Numbered from the stretch's first letter, positions 1 through 60,000 are shown. The stretch is 64,000 nucleotides of DNA from Desulfatiglandales bacterium (GCA_963662465.1 OY759599.1:3296001-3360000); one strand, 5' to 3'. A program made the numbers.

Positions 1-3000
1 CTTTCGCGGAGCGAACGACGGTCTGGTGCCAATTCAGTCGGTGCGGGGTTCCTTTATTGCCTATGCAACATCGCCCGGATCGGTTGCGCAGGACGGCAGT
101 GGTCGAAATGGTCTGTATACGTCGCACCTGCTACAAAACATCAAGAAGCCCGGTTTGACGGTGGAAGAAGTGTTCCGGGAAGTCCGAAGGAGCGTCGCTG
201 AAAAATCGAATTTTAAACAAATCCCCTGGGACAGCTCTTCGCTGATGGGAGCTTTCTACATTGCGGGAGCAGGTGGCGGCAATGACGATGACCGCCGCCG
301 TTTTGAGGAAGACCAGGCGCGACTGGAAAGACAGCGCCGGGAGTTTGAGCAGGCGAAAGCTGAATTTGAACGGAAGCAACTGGAAGCAAAACAACAAACG
401 GTGGAAGTGGCAAGCTTACCTCAACGGCCGTCCTATTCACATAAAGAAGATACAGATGAATTACAGTTTCTTAAAAAATTAAAAGGTGTTTGGGAGGGGG
501 AGGGCAAACAATACAACAATAAGAGTTCCTGGACTATCAAAATGAAAATAGCACCAGACGATTATAAAATTGATTATCCCTCATTAAATTGTGGCGGAAA
601 TCTTATACTTTTATCCCAAACGAATGACCATATTGAATTTAGAGAAAAATTAACTTATGGCCGAAATCGTTGTACGGATAATGGCAAAATTATTATTTCG
701 AAGTCTGAGAAACACAAGTTAAAATGGCTATGGTATTATTCAAATGGAAAACTTGGCGCTGATAGTGTGTTAACTAATTCAACGATCAGCGCGCCATGAG
801 CGCGGGTCGGCAGCCATGAATTCCAGGGACAGCATGTGGGGGTTGGGGTCGGACCAACAAAATGTCGAATTTTCAGCAAGTTGAGTTGTAAAACATGGTG
901 TTTTTAGCCTTTAGAAGCACCTTTTGGCCCCCAAAACATGCTTCTAAGGATTTAGAGTATCAAAGGATGTCAGGCATACACTAAGGAAAACAGGACATGA
1001 CAGGCGTAGGCCACTTTACGGCTTCATAAGTCGAGATCTGGAATCGAAAAGGAGGCACTGTTCAAATAACCAGTTGGAATCGCGAACCAAACGCTCCACC
1101 GGACCCCTGGACGCGGAGGGGTAATCTCGAAGTCCTGTGCGGGGGGCCGGTGAGCTTGTCGTTCGCGTGCGACGTGATGTCGCGTAAGTAGCTGTTTTGT
1201 ATATCAATATAAACCATATAACAAAACCCTGTTTTCTGCAACAGGTATTCTACCGGGACATGCGTCCGGAGTAATCCGGGGGTGTGAAGCTCTCGGGACA
1301 ATGAAGCCCGCGGAATTTTCCGGGAGAGGAAACCGTGAGGGGACCTCAACTCTGCAAGCATCATGCGGTAAGGGAGCTAGAATTGAGCAGTACGGTTAAC
1401 ACATGTGAATCGCTGCAGCGTCGTCACGAGAACAAGCCTAAGATGCTGAAAGGCTTGGACCAAAAAAGGTACGTGGCCAGGAACGGAGGCTGCGAACTCC
1501 TCCGTCGCGGATGTTGTGCCACCGGCGTAAAGGCGGAACCTAACCTGCTCTGGTACTTACGCGGAACATGGTAAGCCCGTAATCCTCCCCACGGGGAAAG
1601 CGAACCGCAAGGTGAGCCCATGGGGTTGCGGGTAAAGGATGTCAGAAAAAGCGAATGCCTCGTTGTAATGATGGGGATACGGATTGAAGGTGTAACTACC
1701 TACATGATCCGGCTCGAAAGAGAGCAGACTTCTGACCGGTGTTCCATTGCGAGATAATCTGTCGAATCTTTAAACAGGGGAAAGCAAATGACGGTGGCCG
1801 TTTTGGCGACTGGTGCACCTTTGGACGGAACAAACTGGTGGAAATCCATAAACTGGAAAACCGTCGGCGAGCACGTTAGAAGACTGCAGGTGCGTATCGC
1901 AAAGGCTGTGAAGGAAAAGCGATGGGGAAAAGTCAAGGTGATACAGTGGCTTTTGACTCATTCGTTTTATGCCAAGTTGTTGGCTATCAAGCGCGTTACT
2001 TCCAACCGGGGTAAACGCACACCGGGAGTGGATAAAGTCATATGGTCCACCCACATTGACAAAATGCAGGCGGTAAACGACCTGCGCCGAAGAGCCTACC
2101 GACCCAAACCGCTGCGCCGAATTTACATACCCAAGAAAAACGGCAAGAAACGCCCATTGGGCATTCCCACAATGAAGGACAGAGCCATGCAGGCGTTGTA
2201 CAAATTGGCGCTTGATCCGGTGGCGGAAACCACCGCCGATCCGAACTCTTACGGGTTCAGACCCTATCGGGGATGTGCGGATGCCATCGGTCAGTGTTTT
2301 ATTTCTCTGGCCAAGCGCCACTCACCCGTATGGATTCTGGAGGGAGATATAAAGGCCTGTTTTGATGAAATCAGCCATCAATGGATGCTCGAAAATATCC
2401 CTATGGATAAACGGACGCTTCAGAAATGGCTGAAATCCGGTTATGTGGAAGGAGGCAAGCTCTATCCAACTTACAGAGGAACCCCGCAAGGCGGGATTAT
2501 CTCTCCAACATTGGCTAATATGGTCCTGGATGGTCTGGAAGCGGCAGCCAAAAGTACCGCCCCGATAAGAATCCAGGGCAATATACGGTCCAAGATAAAC
2601 GTAATCCGTTACGCTGATGATTTCATCATCACCGGGAATTCCAGAGAGATGCTAAATGAGATCAAGCTGGAAATTGAAGCATTTATGGAGCGAAGAGGAC
2701 TTTCGCTTTCAGCGGAAAAGACGTTGATCACAAGGATAGAAGAAGGATTTGATTTTCTCGGACAGAATCCACGCAAATACCAGGGGAAGCTCTTGATAAA
2801 GCCCTCTCGCAAAAACGTGAAAGCCTTTTTAGGCAATATCCGGCAAACAATCCGAAAGCATGCGGCATCAAGAGCCGACATTCTGATTAAAGTACTCAAT
2901 CCCAAAATCAGGGGGTGGGCCAATTACCACAGGCATGTGGTTTCCGGTAGAACTTTCGGGCTTGTAGATCACCGTATCTACAGCTATATTTGGCAATGGA

Positions 3001-57000: not shown

Positions 57001-60000
57001 TTCGCGGTACCCTGCCGAAGCAAGGTCACTGCCTTCCCAGGCACCGTTACCGAATACCCGGTTGTGATACCGCTACACCCTTCGCCACTACCTGGCTGGG
57101 TCTGGGACTTGCGTAACATATCGGAAGCATGATATATTACGCGCACCCTTAAGAACACGTGCCGTGCCCGGCACACAACCAAACGCTCCACCAGACGCCT
57201 GATAGTCCGGCGGTTCCGGCGAGGGCTGGCAGAGGCGCTGGTGAGCTTACCGTTGGCTTGCGACACGGAGTCGCATAGTTTAAGTGTATTCATGTAGTTA
57301 CATGTATTACCCGGTATGTCCCTACCGGACCCTACGCAGGCATGCTGCCGTTGCGCTGATGACGGGGTGTGAAGCCCTGCGGACAACGTACCGAATTGGG
57401 TTTGAATGGCGACAGGAGAACCCCTCCGGGAATCCTCCCCGGTTAAGGGCCAGGGTCAGATGATATGGTGAAGGTATCTGAATGTCTTTAAGCGTCGATC
57501 ACAAGCGAAGGGCCTACGAGGATTAACAGGTCTTATGCCGCTGCCCAGTGTCAGCGGATGTGGTCAGGTTGCAGGTCTGCTAACTGCCTGCACGGAACTG
57601 TTGTACCACCGGCGTAGAGGGCGCACCTAAGTCATCCATTGGATCAACTATGTGGAACGTGGAAACCCGGTCCCGCCGCCCCTTTTGGGGGCAGGCTAAC
57701 CGTAAGGCATGCTGTTGGCGGGCCGGAGTAGGAGGCTGAAAAAAGCGAATGCCGGGCTGTAATGGTCCGGATACCGGGTGAAACATTCCCGGCTCCGTAA
57801 GGAGGCAAACGTTCAGCGTGGTGCCCGATCACGTGAACACCGGAGGAATCAGATGAAAGCGGGGAAAGCAGCCAGTGAAACGGGCGAATGACGGCCCTTG
57901 AGGCTGGTGCGCCCCGCGCGCCTTTGGCTACTCTGACAGCCGGCTTGTAACGTGAAGTAGATGCAAATCCGCGGGAATCCCAACCAGGGAAACCTTTTCG
58001 GGGGCTTGAGCCACGTGAGGTGAAAGTCTCATGCGTGGTTCTGAGGGGGGAATGGGACTGAGAGGTCCCTGACCTACCCGATCAGACCCGCTGGACAGCG
58101 GGGGAACTAACGTCGTAACTCCCAGTAAATAAAGGAGGTTTCAGTGGAAGCGACGATTCAGAGCATCTTTCTTATAGGCTATGCCCTCTATGATCAGACC
58201 CATCTTCTTCCGGAACATATTCGTGAAGCGGCACACCGTCTGATGAGTTGCCGCACATCTGCTCTGGGGGGTCACGTGCAGGCGTGCCCGGACGGTCACT
58301 TCAAAAGGCACTGGTACAACTCGTGTAAACATCGCATGTGCCCCCTCTGCGCTTTTACCCAGGTGAAACGTTGGCTGGCAAAACAAAAGGCTCGCATCTT
58401 AAACACCGAACATTTCCATGTTATTTTCACCATCTCCGATGAATTGCACGACTTATGGCGGTTGAACCGCAAGCTTATGGGCAATCTGCTGTTCAAAAGC
58501 GCCACTGAAACCCTTTCCGAACTCCTTGGAGATCCGAAGCATTTGGGGGGCAAAGTCGGCATCATCGCCTCACTGCATACCTGGAGCCGAAAACTGGACT
58601 TTCATCCGCATCTGCATTGTCTGGTAACGGCCGGTGGGCTGATCGCCGGCGAGTGGATCGCTTCATCAAAAAAATTCCTTTTGCCCTTTGGCATCGTCCG
58701 GGCGGTATTTCGAGGCAAGTACCTCTACTATTTGAGAAAAGCCCTGGATCGGAACGAACTGGTTCTGCCCGAGGGCATGGGGCCTCAGCAGGCCCGGAAC
58801 CTCTTCAATAAACTGGGCCGCCGCAAAAAATGGAACGTCAAGCTCAAAGAGACCTATTCATACGGTGAAGGCGTGTTGATTTACCTGGCGCGTTACTTGA
58901 GAGGCGGAGCAATTTCAAACAAACGCATCTACAGCATTGAAAACGGGAACGTGACCTTCAATTACGGTCGTGAGAAGGTAAAACTCATCTCCCTGCCGAT
59001 TCAAACCTTTATCAGCCGCTATCTGCAACACGTCCCCCTAGCAAATACCGTGATGGTGCGTTCATACGAACTCTATCATCACAGCTCAAAAGAAGAACTG
59101 GCACTCTGCCGGGAAATACTGGGTCAACCGCCTCTTGAAGATACGGAATTTCTGGATTGGCAGACCTTGTGGCAACAGCGAAGCGATGAGCAACCGGACC
59201 GTTGCCCTGTTTGTGGGAAGTGCCTCATAACTCTGGAAATATTGACGCCGGTCAAAAAGTTAAGAGAGCTTCCGAGGTTCAATAAAGTCCATGACATGAT
59301 ACATGCCCAAGCAGCATAGATTAAGCATGCGCAGTCGAAAGGCAGGGCAAATTTGTTCTATTTGTAAACCTTTGATATCAAAACCTTATGAAGGACACAT
59401 CAATTCAAACAAATCAATGGATTAGCGTTAGAACAAATTCACCGTGAGTCGAAAGGTCTTTAGTCGAGTGAAAGGTTTTTGATGTCGAGGTGTTTGGTAA
59501 ACTGCCTAATAACACGATATTTTGGCATTTTTAGCGGGACCATGCGATCAAAAAAAGAAATTTTATCATTTTTAACTGGCTTAGACCGGAATGATGGGTC
59601 AAAAAGAAGTCATGCGGTAGCTGCAAAGATCGTTTAATCTCCATAGCGGCGATCCTGCTCCCATTAACCTATGTGCGTGTGACTCGCGGGTCTGTCCAAC
59701 CAGCCGTTGAACGAAGCTTCGCAAACGCCAAAGCGGTAAAAAGTTTAGTGCTAACAAACCAGTTAAGTTGTTGCGGTTATTGGCATTATGTTGCTAAATC
59801 CAAAAAAAACAGCGGAAAGCAATCTCTAACAGCAAGTAGTGTGCCAAAACGACAACCATGTTCAACCAATGGTTCAAGTCTGATATTTTTCGTCCCAAAA
59901 ATTGCATTTGAGATTTTGTCGCCGTTTTTTACGTTGGGAGGGCAGCAATTTTTGGGCCGAAAAATTACAGCTTAACTCAATGTTATGCCTCCCCAAAAAT

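Follow-up and report, generated by a model that had tools for sequence, protein, structure and literature searches.

The window, the whole stretch of 64,000 nt that was analysed, covers contig positions 3296001-3360000 of Desulfatiglandales bacterium GCA_963662465.1 OY759599.1 (contig 3,296,001 is window position 1). The Rfam models recovered all 28 introns of one RNA family that the first-pass annotation had listed, as 28 RF02012 group II intron matches in the 8.16-Mb genome, and 11 of them lie in the window. There are 26 Rfam matches in the window. Eleven on the plus strand are to RF02012 (D1-D4; 75-124 bits, cut-off 34), and each is followed downstream by one of 11 plus-strand matches to RF00029 (D5-D6; 45-67 bits, cut-off 40); the remaining two RF02001 and two RF00029 matches are on the minus strand. 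The D1-D4 plus D5-D6 ribozyme signature is therefore present in 11 of 11 window copies. An integron integrase gene, intI, lies to the left of the array at contig 3287696-3288643, minus strand. The features are as follows, in window positions.

1085-1166, plus: attC (R'' AAC to the R' GTT at 1163) and CGC before the intron; DNA fold -24.8 kcal/mol, z -3.7
1167-3393, plus: full a-type intron, 2227 nt; reverse transcriptase (RT) ORF 1788-3320, 510 aa, RVT_N, RVT_1 and GIIM, YADD
6098-6175, plus: the only conserved-type attC of the window without an intron (GTT CGC TGCC...)
10353-10434, plus: attC and CGAG (4 nt) ahead of a c-type intron
10435-11399, plus: c-type ORF-less intron, 965 nt, UUGCGAC...CCGGU; EBS1 CUCGAAC against GTTCGAG, 7/7
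18602-18682, plus: attC and GGA
18683-25532, plus: b-type ORF-less intron, split after D5 (parts 18683-19470 and 25485-25532)
22701-24455, minus: serine recombinase in the 6-kb insert of the 18683-25532 intron
26232-26312, plus: attC and AGC
26313-30287, plus: b-type intron, split after D5 (parts 26313-27085 and 30240-30287); EBS1 GCUAAC against GTTAGC, 6/6
27116-29209, minus: serine recombinase in the 3.15-kb insert of the 26313-30287 intron
33451-33530, plus: attC of a different sequence type and GGC
33531-35756, plus: stack member 1, full a-type intron; RT 34151-35683, 510 aa
35757-37981, plus: stack member 2, full a-type intron; RT 36376-37908, 510 aa; 99.9% identical to 1167-3393
37982-38806, plus: stack member 3, b-type ORF-less intron, 825 nt; EBS1 GUCAAC fits the attC junction GTTGGC
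41054-41134, plus: attC and GGC
41135-43699, plus: a-type intron, first base A for G; RT split, 41768-42568 and 42817-43626
42476-42795: 320-nt MITE-like insert in the RT of the 41135-43699 intron
46346-49186, minus: antisense RF02001-type intron; begins GUGUG, immediately next to the GTT on the bottom strand of attC 49187-49267
46733-48738: insertion sequence inside the 46346-49186 intron, 602-aa transposase-like ORF
49187-49270, plus: attC and GGC; an antisense RF02001 intron adjoins its left
49271-51834, plus: a-type intron, first base A; RT split, 49904-50674 and 50952-51761
about 50612-50941: RT insert of the 49271-51834 intron, inner part inverted relative to 42476-42795
52874-52954, plus: attC and CGC
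52955-55517, plus: a-type intron; RT split, 53588-54358 and 54636-55445, by an insert at about 54296-54625
56351-57176, minus: ORF-less antisense intron of RF02001 type, immediately after the GTT on the bottom strand of attC 57177-57254
57177-57257, plus: attC and GGC; an antisense RF02001 intron adjoins its left
57258-58082, plus: b-type ORF-less intron, 825 nt, UUGCGAC...CCCGAU

The autonomous, RT-broken and ORF-less forms and the stacks described earlier were all seen in our copy survey. The RT is intact in 6 of the 28 copies: five full copies of 2225-2227 nt, three of them in the window, encode a 510-aa protein, and one copy outside the window encodes a 494-aa protein. Six further copies, three in the window, have a split RT gene; the inserted piece is about 320 nt in five, and the sixth has a shorter piece and a deletion. 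ORF-less copies measure 812-965 nt, six copies (two in the window) carry a serine-recombinase module of 3.1-6 kb between D5 and D6, and the family also includes 5' fragments. The c-type retains a homologue, about 200 nt long, of the RT start region. The a-type ends, GUGCG...AC (GUGCGAC...CUCGAC in the copy at 1167), fit the group II consensus GUGYG...AY, and the b and c types begin with UUGCG and end with GC, AU or GU. Some copies may be unable to splice, since two a-type copies start with A and not G, and b and c ends can be GC or GU where AY is expected.

The 510-aa RT has RVT_N, RVT_1 and GIIM domains (Pfam) and the YADD motif, and it passes TIGR04416 at 365.8 bits (cut-off 300). Its best solved relative is 6ME0_C, the T.el4h RT (E 2.6e-170, residues 7-485 to 11-484 of 562). 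T. elongatus introns have been described as IIB1 (PMC2882425). By this RT similarity we assign the family to a IIB1/CL-like class related to T.el4h. The protein is without the C-terminal endonuclease part of the T.el4h RT, and no Pfam match to an HNH or endonuclease domain was found in it. Class IIC was considered and rejected, as the GsI-IIC RT matches at only E 1.6e-30 and about 620 nt of ribozyme precede the ORF, counted from the intron 5' end.

About 40 conserved attC sites of 78-81 nt occur in the genome. They have the imperfect-palindrome layout R''(..AAC)-spacer-L''...L'-spacer-R'(GTT..), their folds exceed those of shuffled sequences, and their arrays lie next to intI, which passes TIGR02249 at 444-454 bits (cut-off 265). 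Of the 10 conserved attC sites in the window, nine hold a single intron or a stack, and in every case the introns are on the cassette (top) strand. Inspection of the flanks of all 28 copies gave the earlier classes again, namely 20 at a conserved attC 3' arm, four at attI-like sites, three at the 3' end of another intron and one at another hairpin with GTT. The rule that the intron begins 3 nt after GTT stood at 21 of the 25 sites with a GTT and not at the other four, where the intron begins 4 nt past it (two sites), 2 nt past it (one) or at the TT of GTT itself (one). That the introns share the orientation of the cassettes was likewise borne out: intI is on the minus strand at the left, the cassette ORFs with Pfam matches in the window array are on the plus strand, and every attC has two extra unpaired bases, 6 nt apart, in its 5' arm. 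Such extra bases mark the R''-L'' arm of attC. All attC-linked introns lie on the strand that has these bases in the 5' arm, which also carries the cassette ORFs, and are directed away from intI. These findings support a family of mobile group II introns that homes to attC and attI-like cores on the cassette strand.

The intron boundaries are proven to the base, because the same cassette junctions occur empty elsewhere in the genome. Empty GTTGGA/CAGACCC junctions correspond to GTTGGC/a-type/CAGACCC and GTTGGC/b-type/CAGACCC, and empty GTTGTC/GCGCCGAGG corresponds to GTTCTC/b-type/GCGCCGAGG; the junction of the 57258-58082 intron is empty at contig 6746979, 6789544 and others. Among the public contigs compared with the sites, no bridging joint (empty allele) was found. 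It could be argued that the introns entered a few cassettes only once and that integrase then spread these intron-led cassettes (TTNNN-intron-gene-attC), so that the offset would mark the crossover and not targeting. The intron is always within the downstream cassette, 5 nt after G/TT, several intact intI genes are present in the genome, and an intron-led cassette entering attI would give exactly the attI-like junctions observed, which are without IBS2 and hairpin. However, one and the same cassette can be intron-free or be preceded, at exactly the same base, by either of two intron types, and identical introns precede unrelated cassettes. A check at the attC sites showed both filled and empty junctions, with intron types not bound to one downstream cassette. 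The stacks, the EBS1 fit and the equal offset in other genomes also need specificity on the intron side, and we regard spread by integrase as improbable.

Three 2226-nt copies are 100% identical and occupy three attCs in three arrays (window 33531-35756, contig 4407850-4410075 and contig 6780714-6782939), so mobility appears to be recent; two more copies are 99.9% alike. The copies could in principle come from segmental duplication or from homologous recombination among attC repeats, which are highly similar and could mediate rearrangement, and one cassette is tandemly repeated 8 times elsewhere in the genome. Yet downstream of 17 of 19 intron 3' ends the flanks either differ from each other or lack a close copy elsewhere, the boundaries are exact, the three identical copies have three different downstream exons, and an intact RT with YADD is present. 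An origin without retromobility is thus extremely unlikely. The reported three introns head to tail behind one attC were found at window 33531-38806. The first-pass annotation placed three copies directly after another intron, and this holds for their position. The EBS1 of the downstream intron fits the attC junction and not the intron 3' end, which makes successive new insertions at a still intact attC junction, ahead of a resident intron, a better explanation of the stacks than an affinity for intron 3' ends.

The EBS1 is well supported and stands in a conserved terminal hairpin loop of domain I. It has the form NNN-AAC, complementary to GTT-NNN, and the stem of its hairpin co-varies between the types (GGAGG/CCUCC, GCAGG/CCUGC, GGGAG/GCCC). 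The AAC is invariant in all 24 copies of this genome that keep the hairpin, and it recurs in 10 of 11 relatives examined. Of the variable NNN positions in this genome, 44 of 57 pair, with 10 of 19 sites pairing fully, and 599 of 20000 shuffles reach as much; with nine relatives added, 63 of 84 pair and 1 of 20000 shuffles does so, although copies in one genome are kin and the shuffle test overstates their independence. For the NNN of empty attCs only 1.2-1.8 of 3 positions pair on average. Perfect fits include GTTCGC/GCGAAC at five sites, GTTAGC/GCUAAC at window 26313 and in the relative L010, GTTCGAG/CUCGAAC at window 10435 and GTTGGG/CCUAAC in L015, while 9 of the 19 own sites have one to three NNN mismatches. 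The NNN of EBS1 co-varies partly with the insertion site, and the pairing of EBS1 with GTT-NNN is the likely targeting mechanism. In related genomes, 8 of 12 matches occupy position GTT+3 of attCs, several of which differ in sequence. Relatives in Desulfobacterales-labelled genomes keep this offset at attCs of other sequence, and L042 and L047, whose MAGs are titled Desulfobacterales and Desulfobacterium, are also placed there.

The hairpin itself may be what is recognised. As in class IIC, the RNP would read the folded top-strand attC in single-stranded DNA, and pairing would be confined to a short IBS1 (GTT with a few further bases), without IBS2, a possibility raised by Sonbol and Siam for UHB.I2 (PMC7923331). 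The offset is the same in attCs with quite different arms (L010, L011, L015, L047, L117 and window 33451-33527), the single non-integron site is also a hairpin followed by GTT+3, and of the 9 window sites with folds scored for both strands, 8 have a top-strand fold equal to or better than the bottom-strand one. All three types have the candidate EBS2, ACAAGC, in one position, and it is complementary to the GCTTGT of this genome's attCs, which speaks against hairpin reading; however, it fails to co-vary in both informative relatives, L015 and L047, and it overlaps a predicted stem in the a-type. At the four attI-like sites both an IBS2 sequence and a convincing hairpin are missing; five of six such sites are occupied or scarred, and three of five folds are no better than shuffles. 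GC skew and the position of dnaA put 26 of 28 copies (10 of 12 loci) on the leading-strand template, which is not expected to expose long single-stranded stretches. This placement also counts against the retrohoming proposed below, as endonuclease-less introns prefer the lagging-strand template. According to the published account, hairpin reading is not known for any IIB intron (PMC7923331). On balance, we consider recognition by structure rather unlikely.

We suggest that these IIB1/CL-like introns probably retrohome into the top strand of integron core sites through the NNN-AAC of EBS1. The invariant GTT, in the attC R' box or in attI, would be bound by the AAC, and the three bases after it by the NNN. 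Reverse splicing would therefore put the intron 3 nt after GTT, or 5 nt beyond the point of integrase crossover. In sub-lineages the NNN would have been retuned to GCG, GCU, GUC, CUC or CUCG. Because a 6-nt IBS1 alone would lack the necessary specificity, a second determinant would have to exist in the attC 3' arm, perhaps IBS2 GCTTGT paired to ACAAGC or the stem-loop itself. The few intact RTs would copy the ORF-less and broken-RT introns in trans. Insertion leaves the 5' exon unchanged, so another intron could enter the same junction upstream of the first and give a head-to-tail stack. We also infer that a sense intron at the 5' end of the downstream cassette could be spliced from array transcripts and carried along when integrase moves that cassette, for example to attI.

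At the same attC sites a classical antisense type co-exists with the sense family: RF02001 introns have nine copies, on the bottom strand and antisense to the cassettes, that start directly after the bottom-strand GTT. A wider view, which we offer tentatively and as somewhat less likely to be right than wrong, is that EBS1 serves as an RNA substitute for the inverse core (R'') of attC. AAC-GTT would be the only fixed contact, with the neighbouring triplet retuned per junction, and since GTT is common to every integron site, any integron could be colonised whatever its attC sequence. The sense intron would be spliced and then moved by integrase, giving two tiers of mobility (retrohoming and cassette recombination), and the two attC strands would be partitioned between IIB and IIC-like families.

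Group IIC-attC introns such as S.ma.I2 are reportedly the subject of Leon and Roy (2009). Like the present family, they are described as specialised on attC, next to the conserved GTT after the stem-loop of the strand that they enter, with endonuclease-less IEPs, but as class C, on the bottom strand and antisense to cassettes (PMC3001079). Our sense family has neither a class C ribozyme and IEP nor bottom-strand antisense insertion; it differs in its T.el4h-like RT, its long ribozyme before the ORF and its top-strand, sense position at GTT+3. The closest RT is that of the T. elongatus TeI3/TeI4 introns, also IIB1, which are described with tens of copies, few RT-coding and many ORF-less, with EBS diverged into sub-families, a natural 5' U and an EBS2 hard to read from the fold (PMC2882425). 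There TeI4h works with a 5' U, and copies without an ORF are moved in trans, but integron sites are not among the targets, which are genes, other introns and IS elements, and the TeI4h IEP has an endonuclease domain, absent from the 510-aa protein (Mohr et al. 2010, PMC2882425). The first-pass annotation called the orientation the opposite of published introns, which holds against IIC-attC (PMC3001079) but overlooks UHB.I2, a sense-strand group IIB1 intron with a CL1-class IEP from a soda-lake metagenome integron array (Sonbol and Siam 2021, PMC7923331). By its description, UHB.I2 resembles our family in its IIB1/CL type, endonuclease-less IEP, cassette orientation, place immediately downstream of attC and ends UUGCG...GU, as in our b and c types (PMC7923331); the b- and c-type ends are a variant with precedent in TeI4h and UHB.I2. 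It is a single copy on one 9.8-kb contig, and the passages on it give no offset rule, EBS1/R' pairing, non-autonomous copies or stacks (PMC7923331). The novelty of our family is limited by this one published sense-strand case (PMC7923331), and introns inserted at attC on the sense strand, the reverse of the textbook arrangement, have seldom been reported.

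The genome is a single 8.16-Mb contig, and genome-wide there are 28 matches to RF02012 (group-II-D1D4-7), which bears out the count of 28 introns in the first-pass annotation. Within the window, Rfam models match 26 times: eleven of these matches belong to RF02012 and lie on the plus strand, each with an RF00029 match (D5-D6, plus strand) downstream, and the minus strand carries two RF02001 matches, each with its own RF00029 match. A genome BLAST with the copy at window 1167-3393 defines a full element of 2227 nt, of which there are five full-length copies and six that are interrupted near element position 1322-1334. 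The window holds three of the full copies, and in each the RT gene is intact. Its 510-aa product has RVT_N, RVT_1 and GIIM domains and a YADD motif, and scores above the cut-off of the NCBIfam group II RT/maturase model. This RT-coding form, the a-type, has the ends GUGCGAC...CUCGAC. Two types are ORF-less: the b-type, 825 nt long (UUGCGAC...CCCGGC or CCCGAU), and the c-type, 965 nt long (UUGCGAC...CCGGU). The b-type derives, through deletion, from the sole intron with a 494-aa RT (54% identical to the 510-aa RT), and the c-type still carries a homologue of roughly the initial 200 nt of the RT region. A 31-nt sequence in direct tandem (window 3394-3455) abuts the 3' end of the first intron.

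The best solved relative of the 510-aa protein is the T.el4h RT (6ME0_C; E 2.6e-170, residues 7-485 against 11-484 of 562), and the matches to LtrA and two IIC RTs are much weaker (1e-42 to 1e-30). Since the alignment ends before the En part of T.el4h and the protein has no HNH match, it is probably without an endonuclease. The ribozyme 5' of the ORF is about 620 nt, too long for class C. Thus, the RT matches and the ribozyme length together point to a family that is IIB1/CL-like, not IIC, for introns that the first-pass annotation had not assigned to a class.

We examined the flanks of all 28 copies. Twenty follow the 3' arm of a conserved 78-81-nt repeat, four follow an attI-like sequence ending ...AATCACTGGTT, three follow the 3' end of another intron and one follows a different hairpin and GTT. 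This 78-81-nt repeat is built like an integron attC (AAC, 5-nt spacer, imperfect palindrome, 5-nt spacer, GTT), it folds better than shuffles (z -3.7), and its 5' arm has two extra bases, 6 nt apart. In canonical attCs the extra bases mark the R''-L'' arm, which is the 5' arm on the top strand only. Integron integrase genes above the TIGR02249 cut-off head the arrays and are directed away from them, intI of this array being at contig 3287696-3288643 on the minus strand. The cassette ORFs with Pfam matches in the window are on the plus strand. These three independent lines place the introns on the top strand, in sense, and therefore the earlier claim that they share the orientation of the cassette genes stands.

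In the window, nine of the ten conserved attCs are occupied by an intron or a stack, the sole empty one being 6098-6175; two longer attC-like hairpins, with ends at 30819 and 32214, are likewise empty. Several cassette starts are present genome-wide both with and without an intron. The junction GTTGGA/CAGACCC is empty 15 times in the genome, and GTTGGC/CAGACCC is filled by an a-type intron at window 41135-43699 and by a b-type at window 57258-58082. Similarly, GTTGTC/GCGCCGAGG is empty at contig 3214556 and b-type-filled at contig 6379421. Because the same junctions are seen empty and filled, both intron ends are fixed to the single base. Among 25 GTT sites the cut lies 3 nt after GTT in 21, 4 nt in two and 2 nt in one; at the remaining site the intron copy begins at the TT of GTT.

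Alignment of domain I from all copies reveals, some 325 nt in from the 5' end, a hairpin that is conserved and has a stem that co-varies between types. NNN-AAC is always in its loop, as GCGAAC in the a-type (GCUAAC in one copy), as GUCAAC, GCUAAC or CUCAAC in the b-type, and as CUCGAAC in the c-type. We suggest that this loop is EBS1, the intron stretch that would pair with IBS1 in the exon: AAC would pair with GTT of the core, and NNN would lie opposite the three bases before the cut. In its own genome NNN pairs at 44 of 57 variable positions, completely at 10 of 19 sites, which 599 of 20000 shuffles reach; with nine copies from other genomes added it pairs at 63 of 84, which 1 of 20000 reaches, though these shuffle figures overstate independence because the copies are kin. 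With the 25 empty attCs, NNN would pair at 1.2-1.8 of 3 positions on average. The c-type cuts 4 nt after GTT, an offset explained by its 7-nt EBS1 match (GTTCGAG/CUCGAAC), and a relative with CCUAAC, at locus L015 in a related genome, is inserted at GTTGGG. At the CAGACCC junction, the filled sites (window 41132-41134 and 57255-57257) read GTTGGC and all 15 empty ones (contig 6746983 and others) GTTGGA; at this -1 base, EBS1 pairs with C but not with A. The choice of a rare variant site, or later selection for pairing, could underlie the difference.

A 6-nt IBS1 alone cannot account for the restriction of insertions to integron sites. About 60 nt upstream of EBS1, all three types have ACAAGC, which fits GCTTGT at -13 to -8 of the own-genome attCs. 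It is unchanged in L015 and in L047, a locus in a MAG titled Desulfobacterium, whose attCs differ at that place, and it overlaps a predicted stem in the a-type. A by-eye check for EBS2 in the loops of the stem after ACAAGC found no complementarity to the exon. A further element, EBS2a, has recently been described (PMC8643678). The second target determinant may be this candidate IBS2, or the stem-loop itself. Four attI-like sites and one scar resemble attI of the integron at 6792 kb and lie about 1.1 kb from intI-like genes. The sites lack an IBS2 match, and their folding hardly exceeds that of shuffles. Either EBS1 alone suffices at these sites, or the integrase brought cassettes headed by an intron to them, which would yield an identical attI junction because the intron sits 5 nt inside the cassette. 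At the scar (contig 3200389) the first 9 nt of the a-type 5' end are left, and at contig 2371488 a b-type 5' fragment starts at the TT of an attC GTT, the exact integrase crossover point. Scar and fragment hint that the integrase or deletions have acted on intron ends.

Insertion directly after another intron, as the first-pass annotation described it, is correct as a position, for three copies, but not as a target class. In the stack at window 33531-38806, two a-type introns and one b-type stand behind one attC. EBS1 of this b-type (GUCAAC) fits the attC junction GTTGGC at all six positions, one by wobble. No EBS1 fits CUCGAC, the end of the preceding intron, in its GTT part, and this is also true at contig 440620, where a c-type follows an a-derived copy. 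We rejected the intron 3' end as an insertion target, as a-type EBS1 fits CUCGAC at 2 of 6 positions versus 5 of 6 for the attC junction. Insertion would leave the 5' exon unaltered, and a newcomer would enter the same attC junction, upstream of the resident. The simplest reading of the stack is a record of successive hits, newest first; intron 3' ends are no target class.

Other elements were noted, several of them at or inside the introns.

Other elements (window coordinates unless marked as contig)
46346-49186 and 56351-57176, minus strand: RF02001-type introns, starting GUGUG right after the bottom-strand attC GTT (R'' side)
42476-42795, ~50612-50941 and ~54296-54625: MITE-like element of about 320 nt, 8 loci in the genome
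19471-25484 and 27086-30239: serine-recombinase inserts of 6 kb and 3.15 kb, large serine recombinase at 22701-24455, 27116-29209 (-)
43700-~45300, 58083-~59700 and contig 4413811-4425223: Y2/IS91-like transposase unit, ORFs at 43738-44937 and 58144-59319
6409-8414 and 46733-48738: IS of 2006 bp, 602-aa ORF with weak DUF6431 and IS256-like matches

The RF02001-type introns, nine copies in the genome, stand antisense to the cassettes, in the classical manner; in the window, two attCs have such an intron on the left and a sense IIB intron on the right. Terminal inverted repeats of 10 bp (TTATGCAAAG) bound the MITE-like element, with longer inverted repeats in subterminal positions; the inner part of the element occurs in both orientations. 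Its insertion point is always the small hairpin CCCGCAAGGCGGG, which codes for RT motif 4 (PQGG). Since the element copies are 81-86% alike whereas the introns that host them share 96-98% identity with the reference copy, sequence comparison suggests repeated site-specific hits on RT genes. The serine-recombinase inserts lie between D5 and D6 of b-type introns with repeated TGGTTCTGAGGG on their flanks, and there are six such copies genome-wide. The Y2/IS91-like unit begins CAGACCCGCTGGACAGCGGGGGA, and GTTGGA precedes all 15 intron-free copies, after attC, attI or the unit itself. It is first behind attI in all three integrons examined for this (contig 3288, 4425 and 6792 kb) and forms an 8-fold tandem of 1609 bp. 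The 2006-bp IS duplicates 8 bp of its target (ATATCCAG); 22 further genomic copies are longer than 1.5 kb, and one copy is within an antisense intron. The 602-aa ORF was considered as an unusual intron ORF and rejected, because it is part of this multicopy IS with its 8-bp duplication.

Three intron copies of 2226 nt share 100% identity (window 33531-35756, contig 4407850-4410075 and contig 6780714-6782939) and lie in three arrays with different downstream exons; window 1167-3393 and 35757-37981 are 99.9% alike. The deletion origin of the b-type and the RT remnant of the c-type would fit trans-mobilisation, by analogy with the T. elongatus introns, for which PMC2882425 shows it. Among Logan contigs of four public runs, searched with window 1-14000, none joins 1166 to 3394 or 10434 to 11400; these contigs break at repeats, and the joints listed are between repeated attC or intron pieces. 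Contigs of one RNA run resemble the RT region, at 27-28 differences, and are no evidence for this organism.

The cumulative GC skew is lowest at about 5.5 Mb and highest at about 1.75 Mb, and two DnaA homologues lie at 4.83 and 5.77 Mb. By GC skew and the dnaA at 5.77 Mb, 26 of the 28 introns (10 of 12 loci), and the top strands with them, are on the leading-strand template. By the same measures, the arrays are transcribed head-on to replication at 10 of the 12 intron-bearing loci. The leading-strand placement runs counter to the lagging-strand bias known for endonuclease-less introns and to the orientation known for large chromosomal integrons. It argues against a simple 'hairpin on lagging-strand template' model.

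RF02012 is present in 5 of 60 related genomes, many of them incomplete: 4 of 10 in the same genus, and one in another genus of the family. Eight of their 12 matches lie 3 nt after GTT of an attC, three of these with very different arms (L010, L011, L015); a contig end truncates one, and three are at other or unreadable sites. In a species-representative collection, MAGs titled Desulfobacterales and Desulfobacterium hold the closest RTs (85% and about 80% identity), which lie after attC-like hairpins, and RTs of 50-54% identity in the same collection are not behind such hairpins. A MAG titled Desulfamplus has a related intron family (L039-L043, RT 50% identical) inserted after ...TCGCTNNNNGG, which at L041 is within sequence resembling the attC 5' (R''-L'') arm. 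Other targets prevail among 79 metagenome loci (52-67% identity); L117, where the intron starts UUGCGAC, is clearly at an attC, and L067, L068 and L078 are cut 3 nt after GTT. attC sites were also sought with a strict detector that required AAC, a spacer, a closed hairpin with a minimum of 12 pairs and -12 kcal/mol or lower, a second spacer and GTT. It recovered nine of the ten conserved window attCs and L117, missed L042 and L047, which are attC-like by eye, and matched 0 of 400 and 1 of 400 random-position controls. With it, at least 1 of 38 evaluable metagenome relatives is attC-linked, which is a floor. An earlier, stricter detector gave zero matches, the positive-control type included, and was dropped. 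In a quick RT tree of 53 rows, several with unknown targets, the attC-linked rows do not form one clade; they need two changes, no better than shuffles.

Group II introns had been regarded as invaders of integron arrays almost exclusively on the bottom strand and in antisense, an orientation in which the intron stops read-through from Pc. PMC3001079 describes IIC-attC introns as bottom-strand insertions that face against the cassettes. The classical antisense family is also seen here, at the same sites as the sense introns. The present case makes a testable system of what was an anecdote: it bears on how an endonuclease-less IIB intron locates a recombination hot spot, on whether splicing removes sense-strand introns from cassette transcripts and so keeps their cost to the array low, and on whether the mobilities of integrase and intron strengthen one another. 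A natural intron directed at the universal GTT core may also prove useful for retargeting tools.

Two published systems are close to this family. The T. elongatus introns belong to subclass IIB1, and according to PMC2882425 the 5' base of TeI4h is U, with U -> G lowering mobility, a direct precedent for the 5' U of our b and c types. The TeI4h protein has an En domain (PMC2882425), in contrast to the 510-aa protein, which is probably without one. A literature search, with subscription journals outside its scope, found no multi-copy IIB family on attC, GTT+3 rule or EBS1 pairing, and its sole published sense-strand exception was UHB.I2. As PMC7923331 describes it, UHB.I2 belongs to IIB1, its IEP is of class CL1 and endonuclease-less, and its ends are UUGCG..GU; it lies directly after an attC, in cassette orientation. 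Our finding is real and richer than first described, and is a second, far better documented instance of this published arrangement. UHB.I2 is, in that text, a single intron on one metagenome contig, whereas here a complete genome offers 28 autonomous and dependent copies, exact filled and empty junctions, and a readable rule, GTT-NNN/NNN-AAC.
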